Shown one piece after another: positions 7,833-52,987 of a DNA stretch of 64,000 nucleotides. The notes beneath the pieces were generated by a model. The model made no database searches. It was not told where the DNA came from and saw only the letters and a program-made list of their open reading frames with translations. Within the stretch, counting starts at the first letter, position 1. Every line of letters begins with the position of its first letter. The stretch lies in the NCBI GenBank assembly GCA_050010515.1, contig JBEKKX010000004.1, forward strand, positions 21,199-85,198. Reading direction: 5' to 3'. Position numbers and translations under genes: made by a program. Origin of the DNA: Candidatus Bathyarchaeia archaeon (lineage in GTDB: Archaea > Thermoproteota > Bathyarchaeia > Bathyarchaeales > Bathycorpusculaceae).

Positions 7833-9441
7833 AGCTTGGCGCTTAAGCAAACTGCCGTATAGAGAAGTGGTGTACAGGTCATTAGCGCAGGAAAGGGGTC
7901 GTATGTGGTGGGGGGCTTTTGGAAGAAATCCCTCTGACAGAGACGCATATGAAGACGTTGAGTTAAGCAAAAGAGCGTTACGGATCGCTAAGTTTGACAA
8001 ACTGGTAGTTGCGGTGTTTAATCTTATAGTTTCGGTGGTTCCTTTTGCGTCGCTTTTACTGGGTTCTACAGCGCTGGGTTTGACCAGTTCGGTTTCTCTG
8101 AGTTTAATCATTACGTTTGGGTTTATGACTTTGTACGCAATTCAGACACTTTCTTCTTTTGTTAGCGCGGAGTCCTCAGCGTTGCTTTCTACTCTGCCCA
8201 TTACCTCAAATGACTTTTCATTAGTGACGCTGTTTTCTTTTGTTAGGTCTGTAGATTACCTAGTGGTTGGTTCTGTTTTGAGTCAGGTTGTTTTAGTGGC
8301 TTACCTCACATTGTCCCCTGTAGCTACTGCGCTGATGTTTGGTGCTTCTTTGATGAATTCGGTTTTTGCTGTCGCCGTTGCACTTTGGTTTTCGAGAGTT
8401 TTCCACAAGAACTACTTGCGTGGCGGAAGATCGAAGCGTACCACCCTATTTCGGGGTTTTTTCGTCTTGGTTTGGGGATGCTTGCTTCTGGGGGTAGGTT
8501 TACTTTTGAGCATGCCTTATTATGTTCTTCCTGTTTTGGACAAGGCGTTGCTTAGCGTTAACACTTTATCTGGTATTCTGCTTAGTTTTGTCTATCCGTT
8601 CTCGGCTGGCCTAGCCATCGCAAAATTGTCTGGTTCCAGTGTGCCCCTCGTTACTGTGTTTGGGGCATCGGTTGCTATGGCAGCTTATGCATTAGCAGCT
8701 TGGTTTTCGGCTAAGTGGAGTTTAGGCACGGTGAAGCGCATTTCTATAGGTGCGGGTGTGAGAATTGACAGATTGAGAGCCGTGGATTTCCAGATTAAGG
8801 CGCGCGGTCCTTTGCGAGGCTACGTCACGAAAGATTTACGGGTCACTTCGAGGAACCCAGCCACTGCATTCTTTTTTGCGCTTCCTGTTTTTGAGACGGT
8901 GATTGTGGCGTTTCTGGCGACGAATTATGAGGTGCTTAGGGCTTCAACGGTAATTGTGGCTACTTCTATGGGTGCTATTTTTACTCTGTTAGTTCCTCTT
9001 GCTCTTGTGAGTTCTGAGGGGAAGGAGATTGAATATGCTAAGACTTTGCCGATTACTCCCCAAAGAATGGTGTCTTCTAAAGCTCTAATAACGATGGCGA
9101 CCTACGTTCCAGTACCTTTTGCCCTGGTTTGCCTTGCATTGCTCAAGCCGTTGACCTCATGGTTTACGATTTTGATACCGTTTTTCATGGTAATTTCGGT
9201 AGTTTCTGCAAGCATCTTTGAGATCATGCTTTTTCTGCGCTCTGTTGGCAGAAGTAAAATAGCGGGGATAGTTAATGATGCGGAAAAGATCTTTGCAGGG
9301 CTTCTCACGATTCTTGTGCCGGAAGCTGCTTACGTGGTGGCTTACCTCATCTTATTTAACCATGCATTTGCAGCTCTGACGATGGGTGGAGTTACACTTG
9401 CAGAACTGTGGATAGCTCTTTACGTGCTTGGGCGTAAATAA
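7819..9441 (+). CDS. ABC transporter permease (multi-TM)
   Basis: About 12-14 hydrophobic segments; overlaps the ATPase stop. ATG 7819 is in frame with ORF 7762. Confidence 0.8.
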   Translation: MKLTEAWRLSKLPYREVVYRSLAQERGRMWWGAFGRNPSDRDAYEDVELSKRALRIAKFDKLVVAVFNLIVSVVPFASLLLGSTALGLTSSVSLSLIITFGFMTLYAIQTLSSFVSAESSALLSTLPITSNDFSLVTLFSFVRSVDYLVVGSVLSQVVLVAYLTLSPVATALMFGASLMNSVFAVAVALWFSRVFHKNYLRGGRSKRTTLFRGFFVLVWGCLLLGVGLLLSMPYYVLPVLDKALLSVNTLSGILLSFVYPFSAGLAIAKLSGSSVPLVTVFGASVAMAAYALAAWFSAKWSLGTVKRISIGAGVRIDRLRAVDFQIKARGPLRGYVTKDLRVTSRNPATAFFFALPVFETVIVAFLATNYEVLRASTVIVATSMGAIFTLLVPLALVSSEGKEIEYAKTLPITPQRMVSSKALITMATYVPVPFALVCLALLKPLTSWFTILIPFFMVISVVSASIFEIMLFLRSVGRSKIAGIVNDAEKIFAGLLTILVPEAAYVVAYLILFNHAFAALTMGGVTLAELWIALYVLGRK

Positions 9442-37485: not shown

Positions 37486-39009
37486 ATGAACAATAAAACC
37501 TCAAAAAGTATCCGTATTTTTGACACTACCCTAAGAGATGGTGAACAAACACCCGGCGTATCTTTAACCGCCGACGACAAGATTGAGATTGCACGCCAAC
37601 TGAGCAAGCTAGGCGTCGACGTTATCGAAGCAGGTTTTCCAAGCTCCTCAGAAGGCGAAAAAAAAGTTGTCAAAGAGATTGCAAAAGCTGGGTTAGAACC
37701 AGAAATCTGCGCTTTGTCCAGAGCAACAAAAGGCGATATTGATGCAGCAATCGATTGTGACGTTGACCTAATTCATGTTTTTATTCCTACGTCGCCTGTG
37801 CAAATGAAGTACGCCGTGAACTTAACACCTGAACAAGTGCTGTCTTCAACCGTGGAATCTATTGAGTACGTTAAGAAGCATGGTTTCAAATGCGAGTTTT
37901 CGCCAATGGATGCCACGCGCTCAGAAATGCCCTTCTTAAAACACGTTTGCCAAGCAGCAGAGAAAGCAGGAATGGACACTCTAAACGTTCCTGATACCGT
38001 GGGCATAATGATTCCTAAAACAACCATCAAACTCATTGAGAAACTAAAAAATGTAGTTAACGTTCCCATTAGCACGCATTGCCATGATGATTTTGGCTTG
38101 GCAGTTGCAAACTCCTTAGCCGCTGTTGAAGCTGGGGCTGCTCAGGTGCACGTTGCTGTCAACGGGTTAGGTGAGCGTGCGGGCAACGCTTCGCTTGAAG
38201 AAGTGGTTATGGCTTTGCATCTGATTTACAAGTACAAGACAGGCGTAAACACACGGTTATTATACGGCACATCCAGACTGGTTTCGTCGTTAACCGGCAT
38301 AACTGTGCAAGCTAACAAAGCAATTGTGGGCGAAAACGCTTTTGCACATGAGTCAGGCATTCATACTCGTGGCGTAACAGAGAAGCCATTAACTTTTGAG
38401 CCCATAGACCCAGAGTTGGTCGGGCGCACAAGAAAATTAGTTGCAGGAAAACTAGCTGGAACACGCGGCATCAAAGCTGAACTGGAAGAGATAGGGATCC
38501 ACCCAAGCGAAGAGCAAATAAAAGAAATTGTCCAACGCGTCAAAGAACTAGGCGACAAGGGCAAGATGGTGACGGACGCTGATTTATTTGCGTTAACCTC
38601 TGCAGTCATGGGCGAAGTGATAGGTGAAGAAAAAATCGTTGACTTATGCGACCTAGCCGTCGTAACAGGCATCAAAGTAATTCCAACCGCTTCAGTACGG
38701 CTAACTTTGGACGGAAAAGAGTACATTGCAGCAGAAACAGGCGTAGGCCCAGTTGACGCTGTTTTAAAAGCCATCCAAAAACTAACTAATAACCTGGAAA
38801 ATATACGGCTCAGCGAATACCGACTTGAAGCAATCACAGGTGGCTCAAACGCCGTAGCAGAAGTAGTCATAAAAGTCGAGGACGAAAAAGGCAACATTGT
38901 TTCAGCACGTGCAGCAAGAGAAGACATCGTAATGGCTAGTGTTGAAGCAATGATAAACGGTATAAACAAGTGCTTGCTTAAGAGTCGTAAGCAGGGAAAC
39001 AAAAAGTGA
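37486..39009 (+). CDS. leuA: 2-isopropylmalate synthase (LeuA/CimA family)
   Basis: DTTLRDGEQ, HCHDD, GERAGN, HESGIH and a C-terminal regulatory domain (GPVDA). Confidence 0.88.
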   Translation: MNNKTSKSIRIFDTTLRDGEQTPGVSLTADDKIEIARQLSKLGVDVIEAGFPSSSEGEKKVVKEIAKAGLEPEICALSRATKGDIDAAIDCDVDLIHVFIPTSPVQMKYAVNLTPEQVLSSTVESIEYVKKHGFKCEFSPMDATRSEMPFLKHVCQAAEKAGMDTLNVPDTVGIMIPKTTIKLIEKLKNVVNVPISTHCHDDFGLAVANSLAAVEAGAAQVHVAVNGLGERAGNASLEEVVMALHLIYKYKTGVNTRLLYGTSRLVSSLTGITVQANKAIVGENAFAHESGIHTRGVTEKPLTFEPIDPELVGRTRKLVAGKLAGTRGIKAELEEIGIHPSEEQIKEIVQRVKELGDKGKMVTDADLFALTSAVMGEVIGEEKIVDLCDLAVVTGIKVIPTASVRLTLDGKEYIAAETGVGPVDAVLKAIQKLTNNLENIRLSEYRLEAITGGSNAVAEVVIKVEDEKGNIVSARAAREDIVMASVEAMINGINKCLLKSRKQGNKK

Positions 39010-39827
39010 AAGTAGCCTTCCAAGGCGAACGAGGCGCTTACAGCGAAAATGCAGTCTTCCAGTTCTTCGGAGCCGACGCACAGGTTAAACCCTGCAAGGA
39101 CTTCAAGGACGTTTTTGACAGCGTATGCGCTCAGGAAACCCAGCACGGCGTCGTCCCCGTTGAAAACAGCTTGGAGGGCAGTGTGACTCAGAACTATGAC
39201 CTTTTCCTGAAGTATGATTTGAAAGTGTGCGGCGAAGTCATCGTCAAAGTCGAACACTGTCTCATCGCAAACCCCAATACTGCTTTGGCGGACATCAAAG
39301 TTGTTTACTCACATCCGCAAGCGCTGGCACAGTGCCGAATTTTCTTAGAGGAGTTTGGACGCGAACTCATACCGACATATGACACAGCTGGCAGCGTCAA
39401 GATGCTCAAGGAAAAAGGCTTAAACAACGCTGCGGCGATTGCAAGCGAAAGAGCAGCCAACATCTACGGTATGCACATCCTCGCCAAAGACATCGCGGAC
39501 AACCCTGAGAACTACACACGGTTCTTCGTCCTGTCCACAGAGGATTCGCCTGCAACGGGTAAAGACAAAACCAGCATAATCTTCTCAGCCGCCCACAAGC
39601 CAGGCTCACTCTACCATGCACTAGGCGAGTTCGCCAAAAGAGACATTAACCTCACCAAAATTGAATCCCGACCCACCAAAGAAACACCGTGGGAATACAA
39701 CTTCTACTTGGATTTTGAAGGGCACCGCATTGAGAAGCGATGTGCTGAAGCCTTGAACGCGCTGGAGAAGTATGCAGTGTTCATCAAGATTTTAGGCTCA
39801 TATCCTAAAGCTAAATCGTCACAATAA
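39006..39827 (+). CDS. pheA: Prephenate dehydratase
   Basis: GAYSE, PVENS, SHPQALAQC, NYTRF and an ACT domain (LTKIESRP). Confidence 0.95.
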   Translation: MKVAFQGERGAYSENAVFQFFGADAQVKPCKDFKDVFDSVCAQETQHGVVPVENSLEGSVTQNYDLFLKYDLKVCGEVIVKVEHCLIANPNTALADIKVVYSHPQALAQCRIFLEEFGRELIPTYDTAGSVKMLKEKGLNNAAAIASERAANIYGMHILAKDIADNPENYTRFFVLSTEDSPATGKDKTSIIFSAAHKPGSLYHALGEFAKRDINLTKIESRPTKETPWEYNFYLDFEGHRIEKRCAEALNALEKYAVFIKILGSYPKAKSSQ

Positions 39828-43673: not shown

Positions 43674-43934
43674 CTACTCTTGAACAGCACTGCACATATT
43701 AACTATTTCGCGGTAAACTGCTTCAACTTGAAAGGGATCAAGATGAAATTCAACCGCTTTTTCTTTAACACGTTTGTAGATTTCATTTTCTCTGAAAGTA
43801 TCCCTTATTTGCATCCCTTTCTTTTTCTTAGCTAAGCCGATAGCCTTGCATATTTTGGCTCTTTCATTTAGGGCATTTAGAATTTGTTCGTCAACTTTAT
43901 CTACTTTTTTTCTGAGCTGTTGGATTTCATCCAT
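43674..43934 (-). CDS. Chorismate mutase (AroQ type II)
   Basis: LRKKVDKVDEQI..LNER..IG..K...D..RE. Confidence 0.9.
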   Translation of the reverse strand: MDEIQQLRKKVDKVDEQILNALNERAKICKAIGLAKKKKGMQIRDTFRENEIYKRVKEKAVEFHLDPFQVEAVYREIVNMCSAVQE

Positions 43935-50609: not shown

Positions 50610-51848
50610 TTATTTGGGACTCCTTAATGAGTTTTTAATTAACTTCAAGGCTTTTTCACGTTCATTCCAATCTACAAAGAGCAGAATGCTTGATGTTATG
50701 GTTAGAATGCCTGAAATGTTTATGCCATTCAATCTGAGGTCTTCGCTGATTTTTCCTATTATGCCGTGGGTCTCTTCTAAGCCGACACCGCTTGTTTTTA
50801 TGAAGACTAGGTCTTTTTTGACTGCCATCGCTATGGTTTCTTTGTTGCTCTTTGTTATTTCATGGATATCGTTGAAGAGCGCGTCTAAGTTTTTTTCTTG
50901 AGAAGCGTATAGTATGATTGAGTTTGTGTTCATTGACATGCCGAGAAGCAGGGAGTGCTGTTTGGTTTTTTCCACCATTTCTTGGATGATTTGGGGATTT
51001 GCAGAGATGCCGTTTCCGATTACTGTTATCTCGGCGACTGGAAAGGGATGTGCCATTTCCGCGTCCAGTTCACTTGCTAATGCACCTGTGATTACTGTGC
51101 CCTCTTTAGTCAAGTTGCTGTGCGCGTGGTTGATTACTCGGACGTTGATGTTTTTTGGTTTGTACTTTAAGGCTTTGCTGTGAATAAATTTGGCGCCTGA
51201 ATCAGCTAAGCCTACTAAAGTGTTAACGTCGATTTCTCTTAGGCGTTCTGGGTTGGAGACAGTCTTGGGATCACCTGACATTATGCCGTCTGCATCGGTG
51301 ACTAAGACGATTTCATCAGCGTTTAATGCTTCAGCTAGAATAAACGCGGTTGTGTCGCTGCCGCCTCTTCCGAGAGTGGTGATTTTGCCATCTTTAGTTT
51401 TTCCGAGGAAGCCAGCGACTACTGGTATTATGCCCTTTTCCATAATCGGCAGTATACATTCACGAATATTTTTTTCGCTATCTTTCAGGATTGGATTCGC
51501 ATTTTGGAATGCTGAGTCGGTTATTATTGGCCAGTTGTTGTCTATTGGGTCGAAGTAGCAGGATTCTGCGCCGTTAGTTTTTAGCGCAGCGGCGAATATT
51601 CTTATGCTGGTTCTTTCGCCCATTGAGAGGATGTCGTCTAAGTCTTTTTTTTCCAGTTTTCCGTTGGAAGCGTTTTTCGCTGTTGCCATGAGGACATCAG
51701 TTGTTTTGCCCATAGCGGAAACTACAACGGCGATACGCGTGCCTTTTTTTGCTTCGTTTACGACGGCAACAACCGCTTTTAACAGTCTTTCGTGATCCGA
51801 TAGGCTGGAGCCACCGAATTTAACCACAATTTTTTTGTTATTTTCCAT
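50610..51848 (-). CDS. Aspartate kinase
   Basis: KFGGSS, VVSAMG.TTD, TLGRGGSDTTA, DPK and C-terminal ACT domains. Confidence 0.93.
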   Translation of the reverse strand: MENNKKIVVKFGGSSLSDHERLLKAVVAVVNEAKKGTRIAVVVSAMGKTTDVLMATAKNASNGKLEKKDLDDILSMGERTSIRIFAAALKTNGAESCYFDPIDNNWPIITDSAFQNANPILKDSEKNIRECILPIMEKGIIPVVAGFLGKTKDGKITTLGRGGSDTTAFILAEALNADEIVLVTDADGIMSGDPKTVSNPERLREIDVNTLVGLADSGAKFIHSKALKYKPKNINVRVINHAHSNLTKEGTVITGALASELDAEMAHPFPVAEITVIGNGISANPQIIQEMVEKTKQHSLLLGMSMNTNSIILYASQEKNLDALFNDIHEITKSNKETIAMAVKKDLVFIKTSGVGLEETHGIIGKISEDLRLNGINISGILTITSSILLFVDWNEREKALKLIKNSLRSPK

Positions 51849-51866
51849 TTGTTACACCCATTTTGC

Positions 51867-51901
51867 GCCCAGAACTTTTTTTAAAATTTTCAGTTCTGAG
51901 C
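51867..51901 (-). promoter_or_regulatory. 10-bp hairpin between the aromatic leader ORF and aspartate kinase
   Basis: mRNA GCUCAGAACU-15 nt-AGUUCUGGGC (9 Watson-Crick pairs + 1 GU), beginning at the first nucleotide after the leader stop. Confidence 0.7.
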
Positions 51902-51985
51902 TTAGTAAAAATAATAATAAAAGTAGTAGCCGAAGCTAAGGAACTGTGATGTACTGTTTTCTTTCTTGCTTTTGCAATTAGACAT
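51902..51985 (-). promoter_or_regulatory. Candidate Phe/Tyr leader peptide MSNCKSKKENSTSQFLSFGYYFYYYFY
   Basis: ATG 51985 to TAA 51902 with 8 consecutive Tyr/Phe codons before the stop. BRE/TATA-like CGAAA..CTTATATT near 52026-52039; 53 nt upstream of the aro operon. Confidence 0.8.
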
Positions 51986-52150
51986 TGTAGCTTCGAACCT
52001 TGCTGAATGAAACATTATCCAGAAAATATAAGCATTTCGGCGTTTCAGAAATTTACTACAGTTTAACCGATAACTCCTAATCTTGCCCGATGGATAAAGT
52101 ATAGTCTTTATCAAGTCGACCGTGCATAAGAACCTGAAGAAGGTATCCCA

Positions 52151-52987
52151 GTGAAAGCGCAAACACAAAACGACTGGCAAGAAATCCTCAGCCAATGCAA
52201 AAACAAAGTACACACCAGCATTAAACCATTCCTAGCAACCATCAGGGAACCACAACCTAACTTAGGCACGGGCGCTGGCGGAGACGCTATAAAACCAGTG
52301 GATTTGGCTGCAGAAACAGTAATCATTGAAACTCTAAAGCAGCATGACGTTTCTTTCACTTTGATTAGTGAGGAGTCAGGGGTGAAAAAATTCGGTGCAA
52401 CGCCTGATGAGTGTTATGTTACGGTTGACCCGATTGACGGAACCACAAATTTGATGCATGGTTTACCCTTTTATGCATGTTCTATCGCTGTTTCGAGACA
52501 GCCTATGCTCACCGATGTTTATGCTGGGCTGGTTGCTGACCTTGTCCATGATGTAACTTATACTGCTTTTGAGGGCAAAGGCGCATATCGAGAAGGCAAA
52601 AAAATAGAAACATCAAAAACTGCTTCTTTGGATGAGGCAGTTGTAGGCTTAGACCTAAACACCTACAAAGTCAAAGAAGTCGCGCCCAAATTAACCGCTC
52701 TGATTGAGAAAACAAAGCATATCCGCCACTTTGGCGCTAACGCACTTGAACTCTGCTATGTAGCAAATGGTTTAACAGACGCTTTTGTTGACCTTCGCGG
52801 GAAACTCCGCACGACAGACGTAGCCGCCGGCTTCCTCATAGTCAAAGAAGCGGGTGGAACAGTGACATCGCCAGATAATCAAGCGTTAAACGTTGAATTG
52901 GATCCTAAACAAACCTTGAGCTTCATAGCTTCGGGTAACACGCAAATTCACAAGAAAATCGTGAGCTTGGTTAAATCTGCATGTTAA
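52151..52987 (+). CDS. Inositol monophosphatase/FBPase family
   Basis: SEE, VDPIDGT, GANALELC and DVAAG motifs. Confidence 0.9.
   Translation: MKAQTQNDWQEILSQCKNKVHTSIKPFLATIREPQPNLGTGAGGDAIKPVDLAAETVIIETLKQHDVSFTLISEESGVKKFGATPDECYVTVDPIDGTTNLMHGLPFYACSIAVSRQPMLTDVYAGLVADLVHDVTYTAFEGKGAYREGKKIETSKTASLDEAVVGLDLNTYKVKEVAPKLTALIEKTKHIRHFGANALELCYVANGLTDAFVDLRGKLRTTDVAAGFLIVKEAGGTVTSPDNQALNVELDPKQTLSFIASGNTQIHKKIVSLVKSAC

Follow-up and report, generated by a model that had tools for sequence, protein, structure and literature searches.

The pheL-pheA, trpL, hisL, thrL, leuL and ilvL leaders of enterobacteria each contain a short open reading frame (ORF) that is rich, in its 3' half, in codons for the end product and that lies before a biosynthetic operon. 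In bacterial attenuators a structured RNA segment comes after the stop codon, closely followed by the first structural gene. A leader with the same layout is found in a 64,000-nucleotide stretch of contig JBEKKX010000004.1 from Candidatus Bathyarchaeia archaeon (the window). Here a short ORF ending in a run of Tyr and Phe codons stands ahead of ask, the aspartate kinase gene that heads an operon for the synthesis of chorismate and Tyr.

Some bacterial leaders act through a termination factor. In tnaC a stalled ribosome blocks the access of Rho, and mgtL/mgtA is likewise an example of factor-dependent leader control. Archaea couple transcription to translation; their polymerases resemble those of eukaryotes, and a CPSF73-like nuclease serves termination at U-tracts. 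To our knowledge, ribosome-mediated attenuation in archaea has been an open question ever since the discovery of the trp, his and phe attenuators of bacteria.

Probably the short ORF is translated and acts in cis, as a leader that tells the ask-aro-tyrA operon how much charged tRNA-Phe and tRNA-Tyr is available. An initial annotation, made from the letters of the window, had proposed such a Phe/Tyr leader. Comparison with related genomes supports the proposal, since the reading frame, the start codons and the Phe/Tyr codons are conserved and the operon is one of the aromatic pathway. The proposed sensor is of a known kind, in a domain of life where such attenuation has not been demonstrated.

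Full-text literature, mostly outside subscription journals and excluding supplements, yielded no report of a ribosome-mediated amino-acid attenuator in archaea. The terms 'attenuation', 'leader peptide' and 'polarity' do not occur in PMC8116511.

The leader ORF

Every coordinate and residue first given for the ORF, its codon tract, the promoter, the hairpin and the Shine-Dalgarno (SD) motif is correct in the sequence (Table 1). The codon tract encodes six Tyr and two Phe residues and uses both Tyr codons.

Such an ORF is rare. Nine of its last 12 codons are aromatic. The window's genome (2.38 Mb, 66 contigs) contains 18,902 ORFs of 15-45 codons that start with ATG, and no other of them reaches eight; the eight runners-up have seven.

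The leader frame remains open for 103 codons, back to a GTG (51902-52213, minus strand), where it overlaps the start of a divergent Inositol_P-family gene (52151-52987). Gene finders could call a spurious 103-aa protein from it. An exact look-up of the 27-, 37- and 103-aa readings of the frame in a collection of 15 billion proteins found none of them. Annotators thus miss conserved short upstream ORFs in archaeal 5' leaders.

Conservation among orthologous loci

Orthologues of ask occur in all 24 other genomes of the genus, at 72-96% identity. A first draw of 27 orthologous loci consisted of this genus and three loci from other families at 51-59% identity. All 27 have a short ORF that ends 51-86 nt before ask, and 6-9 of its last 12 codons are aromatic. 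By comparison, none of three loci of a paralogous aspartate kinase (about 38% identity) has a leader ORF, and 2-3 of the last 12 residues are aromatic there.

This second, roughly 38% identical aspartate kinase (L028-L030; C3:96299-97456 in the window's genome) is without an aromatic leader. The two kinases appear to be dedicated to separate pathways.

Across the order, an ask orthologue was found at E ≤ 1e-90 in 162 of 301 sampled genomes. Sixty of the 162 upstream regions were picked to spread over genera; at least 6 of the last 12 codons are aromatic in 56 of them, and 4-5 in the remaining four. A further 57 loci, from named records, were added to the first draw and the 60 order loci. In the pooled set, loss of the in-frame ATG or of the Phe/Tyr run, which the initial annotation had named as evidence against a leader, is confined to a few loci. 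An in-frame short ORF with at least six aromatic residues in its last 12 codons is present at 138 of 143 Bathyarchaeia loci, and 121 of 124 unique loci have an ATG in frame, 11-45 codons ahead of the stop. The loci come from related genomes and were partly picked by hand, so that these counts overstate independent support and show breadth rather than independent events.

The five loci below six (L064 and L077 with five each, L075 and L078 with four each, L126 with three) are weaker or masked copies. L126 has masked bases right after the hairpin, and its full leader can be recognised by eye. Some start codon is present in all 124 unique loci. Three loci without an ATG share a conserved TTG, and L078 has GTG in place of the ATG of its relatives. 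In all 124 unique leader regions the aromatic frame stays open for 20 codons or more; the other two frames do so in 21 and 81.

Alignment A1 shows an invariant ATG throughout the genus. Roughly the first 14 codons are free to vary, and gaps there span 3 or 6 columns; conservation runs from AGCTTCGAC through the aromatic codons, and the stop always touches GCCCAGAAC...GTTCTGGGC. Between families the nucleotide sequence turns over completely and the aromatic coding is kept. The N-terminal half varies with indels in multiples of three; the C-terminal half keeps only its aromatic content. For instance, leaders of different lineages end in SFDYYFYYYHFP, FYSFSYFFYN, FFTYFSGYYTTF, FFGSFGYFGYRG or RYFFKYYYY, and some in the window's genus end in FYYYHFP before the stop. 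Composition and position are conserved in the leader peptide, not sequence.

Codon usage and start signals

In 119 unique leaders the aromatic share is 65-89% at codons -2 to -8 and -10 from the stop, and 28% at codon -1. The background in the long ORFs of the window's genome is 8.8% of residues. The last 12 codons of these leaders hold TAT 341 times, TTT 232, TTC 157, TAC 139 and TGG 21 times, and all three stop codons occur. The tract as a mere TAT microsatellite is rejected, as all four Phe/Tyr codons are in use. The absence of Trp codons, first reported from the window, is correct there and does not extend to leaders in general.

Tyr is written as TAT in 71% of cases in the leaders (341/480), against 41% in the long ORFs of the window's genome (5804/14309). 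Possible reasons for this bias are slow reading of these codons by wobble, selection for U-rich sequence, or variation from genome to genome.

Signals for translation and transcription precede the leader ATG. Of 120 unique loci, 89 have an SD-like 4-mer 4-18 nt ahead of it, whereas a control interval has one in 8; a TATA-like hexamer lies 39-50 nt ahead in 84 of 120. By the usual geometry of archaeal promoters, transcription would start about 10-20 nt before the leader ATG.

The hairpin after the stop codon

The window's hairpin, with the arms GCUCAGAACU (51901-51892) and AGUUCUGGGC (51876-51867), starts at the base directly after the stop codon. This position is general. Of 122 unique spacers between stop and ask, 121 give a minimum free energy (MFE) fold whose first helix starts -3 to +5 nt from where the stop codon ends, with a median energy of -17.3 kcal/mol. 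A hairpin of -12 kcal/mol or better in the same start range is found in 118 of the 122 real spacers and in 374 of 2440 shuffled ones (15.3%). Compared with dinucleotide shuffles, the spacers fold with a median energy z of -2.97, and 88 of 122 are below -2. An SD-like motif follows the hairpin by 0-8 nt in 108 of 122 unique loci. The whole 166-nt leader is not unusually stable (z -1.04); the signal resides in the spacer between stop and SD.

The stem comes in two flavours. One has the arms GCCCAG/CUGGGC and is nearly invariant over 69 loci in three families (the window's genus with families f1, in part, f6 and f7). In an alignment of these 69 hairpins (A2), 87% of cells are paired, a share that drops to about 50% if the partners are shifted by one column; 11 cells changed on both sides. 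The structure was given by hand, which leans the figure towards it, since MAFFT had shifted some rows and consensus folding returned none. The other flavour, found elsewhere, has a purine-rich 5' arm and a pyrimidine-rich 3' arm, GGAGAA...UUCUCC. The position of the hairpin is conserved and its sequence turns over between groups. A search of the genome for further copies gave 52 loose pattern matches, none of which, apart from the leader's own, resembles the hairpin.

A second helix may form within the leader. GGTTCGAAGC pairs with positions 51937-51929 (AGCTTCGGC) in both the MFE and the centroid fold, and five of the pairs persist in 21-23 of 24 genus loci and show little covariation. Both segments contain the palindrome TTCGA(A), the second TTCGA copy lying 62 nt downstream. 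The helix could be a 5'-terminal stem or a mask of the leader's own SD, or the segments could be a DNA operator. A helix GCTTCGAA/TTCGAAGC, as in this pairing, forms the post-stop hairpin in loci L153 and L154 of another order.

Spread beyond the order

The aldolase of the operon is present in 128 of 251 genomes sampled over the class. From this level 40 loci and 20 extended stretches were chosen to cover families. A short ORF with an aromatic tail and a hairpin abutting its stop lies before ask in families f14, f16 (by eye), f19, f27, f30, f32, f34 and f37, and in weaker form in f15. Leaders of other orders end, before the stop, in NPYYYYYYYCFF, RFFGYFYFYYFK, FFDFFYYYFYFE or FFDSYYYFYFS.

Of 20 loci taken from other classes of the phylum, seven carry such an ORF: L214 and L215, both ending in MFGYFYFYYFGP; L216, L217 and L225; and, in weaker form, L222 and L224.

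Organization of the locus

The operon that follows the leader belongs to the aromatic pathway and holds no trp genes; the Pfam scan and the ORF list agree on this with the first description of it. After ask, Pfam finds a DeoC-family aldolase (AroA'-like), dehydroquinate (DHQ) synthase II (aroB'), type I dehydroquinase (aroD), shikimate dehydrogenase (aroE), a GHMP kinase, EPSP synthase, chorismate synthase (aroC), an aminotransferase and prephenate dehydrogenase (tyrA). An 86-aa ORF (43674-43934) between chorismate synthase and the aminotransferase is chorismate-mutase-like in the reading of the initial annotation. A class-I glutamine amidotransferase comes next after the last gene of the operon. 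The products of the operon are chorismate and Tyr. The genes from ask to tyrA probably form a single transcript, because their junctions are short or overlapping.

The aldolase and DHQ synthase II presumably make up the archaeal dehydroquinate route from aspartate semialdehyde. Such a starting point would explain why an aspartate kinase heads an aromatic operon.

Table 1. Features of the leader and operon in the window
Feature	Position	Strand	Details
BRE/TATA-like promoter block CCGAAATGCTTATATTTT	52040-52023	minus	TTATAT at 52031-52026
Near-palindrome GGTTCGAAGC	51999-51990	minus	Predicted short 5' UTR; holds the leader's SD-like AGGT; pairs with 51937-51929
Leader ORF MSNCKSKKENSTSQFLSFGYYFYYYFY, then stop	51985-51902	minus	ATG 51985-51983; 27 sense codons; TAA 51904-51902
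AGCTTCGGC, codons S-F-G	51937-51929	minus	Pairing partner of 51999-51990
Sensor tract, eight successive Tyr/Phe codons	51928-51905	minus	TAC TAC TTT TAT TAT TAT TTT TAC; one U4 and one U5 run
Hairpin abutting the stop	51901-51867	minus	10-bp stem with one G-U pair; 15-nt A/U loop with TTTT 51886-51883
GGGTG, SD-like motif of ask	51859-51855	minus	7 nt after the hairpin
ask, aspartate kinase, 412 aa (AA_kinase + ACT)	51848-50610	minus	ATG 51848; Pfam; first structural gene of the operon
Remaining operon genes	50592-41694	minus	Pfam scan and ORF list

Of the genus loci in alignment A1, 23 extend to the promoter block, which is nearly invariant in them. Its role as a promoter is inferred from the usual archaeal promoter geometry.

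Gene order differs between groups. In most other orders the operon starts ask-asd-aroA', where asd encodes aspartate-semialdehyde dehydrogenase (L157 and 23 similar class-level loci). In the order of the window, the aldolase follows ask directly, without asd in between. The gene for prephenate dehydratase (PDT, 39006-39827, plus strand) lies on the opposite strand, where it closes a leuCDBA-like operon outside the aro operon.

No tRNA genes were found in the window. A scan of 51700-52200 against Rfam 15 at E ≤ 10 gave five matches (E 0.49-7.9), all to unrelated eukaryotic families. They score 14-18 bits against gathering scores of 34-91, so that no curated RNA family is matched, bacterial leader families included.

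Tests of the output step

In a bacterial-type attenuator the position of the ribosome decides between an antiterminator and a terminator structure that exclude each other. The initial annotation had noted that the loop and the beginning of the hairpin's 3' arm can pair with the Tyr/Phe tract. This pairing is real in the window, with a predicted duplex of -11.7 kcal/mol (z -3.47 against shuffled tracts), and it is not conserved. Over 122 unique loci, pairing between tract and hairpin has a median z of -0.135 and falls below -2 in only 8; pairing between tract and 5' arm has a median z of 0.09. Consensus folding of the genus returns two helices only, and they do not compete. The lack of conserved pairing between tract and hairpin argues against a classical antiterminator.

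The hairpin does not look like a bacterial terminator either. It had been described as lacking a U-tail in the window, and a scan of the window for bacterial-type terminator patterns gives 0 sites. In hairpins of the genus the T run sits in the loop (5-8 in most loci, 4 in the window), and none follows the hairpin. Among 120 loci, a U run of at least four lies between hairpin and SD in 25; the other 95 are without one. With no conserved antiterminator and no general U-tail, the output probably differs from that of bacteria, as the initial annotation had expected.

Control of the downstream GGGUG SD had been offered as another output. For masking of the SD, 120 unique leaders were folded with the footprint of a ribosome masked at five positions. 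In this thermodynamic modelling the mean probability that the SD is unpaired is 0.34 with a ribosome at the stop, 0.35-0.39 with a stalled ribosome and 0.35 without a ribosome. Accessibility rises in 38 of the 120 loci and falls in 29, and there is no systematic change. Simple unmasking of the SD is therefore not supported.

A third output, also raised at the outset, is factor-dependent termination. In the last 12 codons of 114 unique leaders there are on average 1.52 tracts of four or more U (U4+), compared with 1.04 (sd 0.07) after synonymous randomisation with the codon usage of the genome and 1.25 (sd 0.07) with the leaders' own codon usage. Within the genus the values are 1.87 and 0.91 (sd 0.155). 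No simulation reached the observed values; relatedness among the leaders inflates the contrast. The genome encodes an orthologue of aCPSF1/FttA (TIGR03675, 904.8 bits against a cut-off of 580.2). Candidate U-tract sites at the end of the leader ORF and a gene for the factor that could use them are thus both present.

According to PMC8716108, aCPSF1 recognises U-tracts through its KH domains, needs no hairpin and cleaves downstream, and the archaeal terminators mapped by Term-seq are without hairpins.

Two peat metatranscriptome runs, which hold 6-7% of the sampled words, were searched at 90% likeness. They contain seven contig pieces of relatives over aroA'/ask and none within 51390-52300. Contigs of this kind cannot show levels or ends, and they are uninformative on the leader either way.

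A possible mechanism

A ribosome covers about 12 nt on the 5' side and 15 nt on the 3' side of its P site. With an aromatic codon at -2 or farther upstream in the A site, it would fall short of the stem. A ribosome stalled on aromatic codons -2 to -10 would therefore cover the U-rich tract and leave the hairpin closed. With the stop codon in the A site, at least 6 bp of the hairpin would be opened, so that only finishing ribosomes would melt its base.

When Phe and Tyr are ample, the ribosome would finish and leave, freeing two or three U4+ tracts in the codon run or in the loop or tail of the hairpin. At these tracts aCPSF1/FttA, or intrinsic termination at oligo-U, would stop or cut the transcript before ask. 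When Phe or Tyr is short, the stalled ribosome would hide the U-tracts, RNA polymerase would continue, and ask would be translated from its own SD.

This whole chain, a sensor joined to the shielding of U-tracts from termination of the aCPSF1/FttA type, is favoured here, though only tentatively. A broader version would make the leader the first known amino-acid-sensing, ribosome-mediated attenuator of Archaea, old and widespread, with a presence in most sampled orders of Bathyarchaeia and in several other classes of the phylum. Its Phe/Tyr codons would double as the landing site of aCPSF1/FttA, hidden by a stalled ribosome, and the hairpin would report that a ribosome has completed the leader, an arrangement with no bacterial equivalent. 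That picture is slightly more doubtful.

Several observations weigh against the sensor and shielding scheme. Its chief weakness is that the hairpin, the best-conserved RNA feature, has no role in the favoured output. The arm sequences of the hairpin are conserved more than pairing requires. RNA polymerase is uncoupled with a stalled ribosome and with a released one alike, so the shielding must be specific to the U-tracts. The excess of U4 tracts could come from selection for slowly read U-ending codons, or from mutation bias. The distribution of the leader is also uneven. No aromatic run was seen in families f17, f31 and f35, which have the same ask operon, and 13 of the 20 loci from other classes fall under the aromatic threshold. 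Family f26 (L200-L204) has no Phe/Tyr run and instead carries another conserved small ORF before ask, with the motif GD[RH]LFGDGVY, which may be another kind of leader. Finally, the regions upstream of trpE (C8:~8300-8450) and hisG (C2:82981-83239) in the same genome hold no run of Trp or His codons.

Scans of the genome for other leaders, by runs of a single residue, by hairpins abutting a stop and by aromatic tails, gave noise apart from this one. Two look-alikes, at C6 and C22, were rejected for lack of a downstream gene. Programmed frameshifting on the U-rich run, T-box-like contact of the UGGG arm with tRNA, and a bulge-helix-bulge processing site were considered and dropped; they have no sequence support. 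The same is true of shunt-like reinitiation across the hairpin, the logic of which would also be inverted.

Alternative explanations

The sensor could instead act after transcription, through the state of the hairpin. A closed hairpin, in starved cells, would be the ON state, and its opening by terminating ribosomes would lower the translation of ask or the stability of the mRNA: the freed 3' arm may disturb the adjacent SD, a cleavage site may be exposed, or a protective 5' structure may be lost. This output is nearly as likely as the shielding of U-tracts. It would account for the tightest conserved spacing of the leader, that of stop, hairpin and SD (121/122 and 108/122), and it does not need the U run after the hairpin that only 25 of 120 loci possess. 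Where the 5' arm is purine-rich, the pyrimidine-rich 3' arm (..UUUCUCC) adjoins GGGGG or GGAGG; the genus 3' arm GUUCUGGGC, by contrast, is not complementary to GGGUG, and masked folding shows no systematic change in accessibility (38 against 29 of 120). The Cys leaders of mycobacteria are a proven bacterial precedent for translational control (bioRxiv 10.1101/834739). A bacterial-style intrinsic attenuator, in which the hairpin and a U run form a terminator that a stalled ribosome blocks, is much less probable. Several lineages do carry U4-U6 after the hairpin and directly before the SD (L069-L077; L025/L057/L082/L086/L087), and L153/L154 have a perfect 15-bp stem with UUUUU. By the footprint geometry, however, stalls at -2 to -10 would leave the hairpin intact and make starvation the OFF state, which inverts the logic. 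The antiterminator is not conserved, the U run after the hairpin is missing from the window, its genus and 95 of 120 loci, and Term-seq terminators of archaea are hairpin-free (PMC8716108).

Other explanations give up the sensor. A non-coding element may regulate the operon while the ORF is incidental: the hairpin or the TTCGAA helix would bind a protein or ligand, or GGTTCGAAGC would be a DNA operator at the transcription start. The nearly invariant GCCCAG/CUGGGC arms (69 loci, three families, slight covariation) fit this idea, as does a near-palindrome at the predicted start with a second TTCGA copy 62 nt downstream. It is nevertheless improbable, since it leaves the in-frame start, the open frame, the aromatic coding and the contact of stop and hairpin unexplained, and no Rfam family matches (the best E is 0.49). 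The leader could well have an operator beside it. Least likely of all is a functional micropeptide that is no sensor, for example one that has an aromatic tail and acts as a partner or regulator of the ACT-domain aspartate kinase. The ORF is always beside ask, and a loose motif S-F-x-Y-x-F-Y recurs in many lineages. However, length, N-terminus and residue order vary widely (SFDYYFYYYHFP, FYSFSYFFYN, FFTYFSGYYTTF, RYFFKYYYY and NPYYYYYYYCFF), with composition the shared property, and the protein collection holds none of the 27-, 37- and 103-aa readings.

Comparison with known systems

The leader offers a test object of about 190 nt, validated by phylogeny, with predictions on the start codon, the identity of the codons, the distance from stop to hairpin and the U4 tracts. 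It would also bear on the control of aromatic amino-acid synthesis in uncultured Bathyarchaeia, which are abundant in peat and sediments.

One close likeness is to the enterobacterial leaders. The pheL peptide of E. coli ends in FFFTFP before its stop, which resembles the FYYYHFP tail found in the genus of the window. Unlike bacterial attenuators, the archaeal leader has a TATA/BRE promoter, shows no mutually exclusive terminator and antiterminator structures, and in the window has no U-tail. Its hairpin begins at the stop, so that stalls leave it closed, and Phe and Tyr codons, sometimes with Trp, are mixed in one run. The leader is therefore not assigned to the bacterial attenuator family: the likeness holds at the level of the sensor and fails at the alternative structures and at the terminator of hairpin and U-tail.

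The ermC and cat leaders likewise have a codon run at the end of an upstream ORF and need no intrinsic terminator. The leaderless polycysteine short ORFs of mycobacteria (bioRxiv 10.1101/834739) show a run of cognate codons at the 3' end of an upstream ORF, without an intrinsic terminator. In the mycobacterial Cys leaders and the ermC/cat leaders alike, the SD of the following gene base-pairs with the codon tract, whereas here neither a conserved pairing of tract and SD nor a change in accessibility is found.

The favoured output shares the logic of tnaC, in that a ribosome at the end of the leader would hide the entry site of a termination factor. Unlike in tnaC and mgtL, the candidate factor is not Rho but aCPSF1/FttA, a beta-CASP nuclease with KH domains that binds U-tracts (PMC8716108), and the proposed site is the sensor codons themselves. 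No description of ribosome-gated use of U-tract terminators in a 5' leader was found in the literature searched. Like the archaeal aCPSF1/FttA terminators of PMC8716108, the leader has several U4+ tracts in a span of about 60 nt where a short transcription unit ends. Known archaeal U-tract terminators stand at the 3' ends of genes; here the same kind of signal would be used conditionally, in a 5' leader, under the control of the ribosome.

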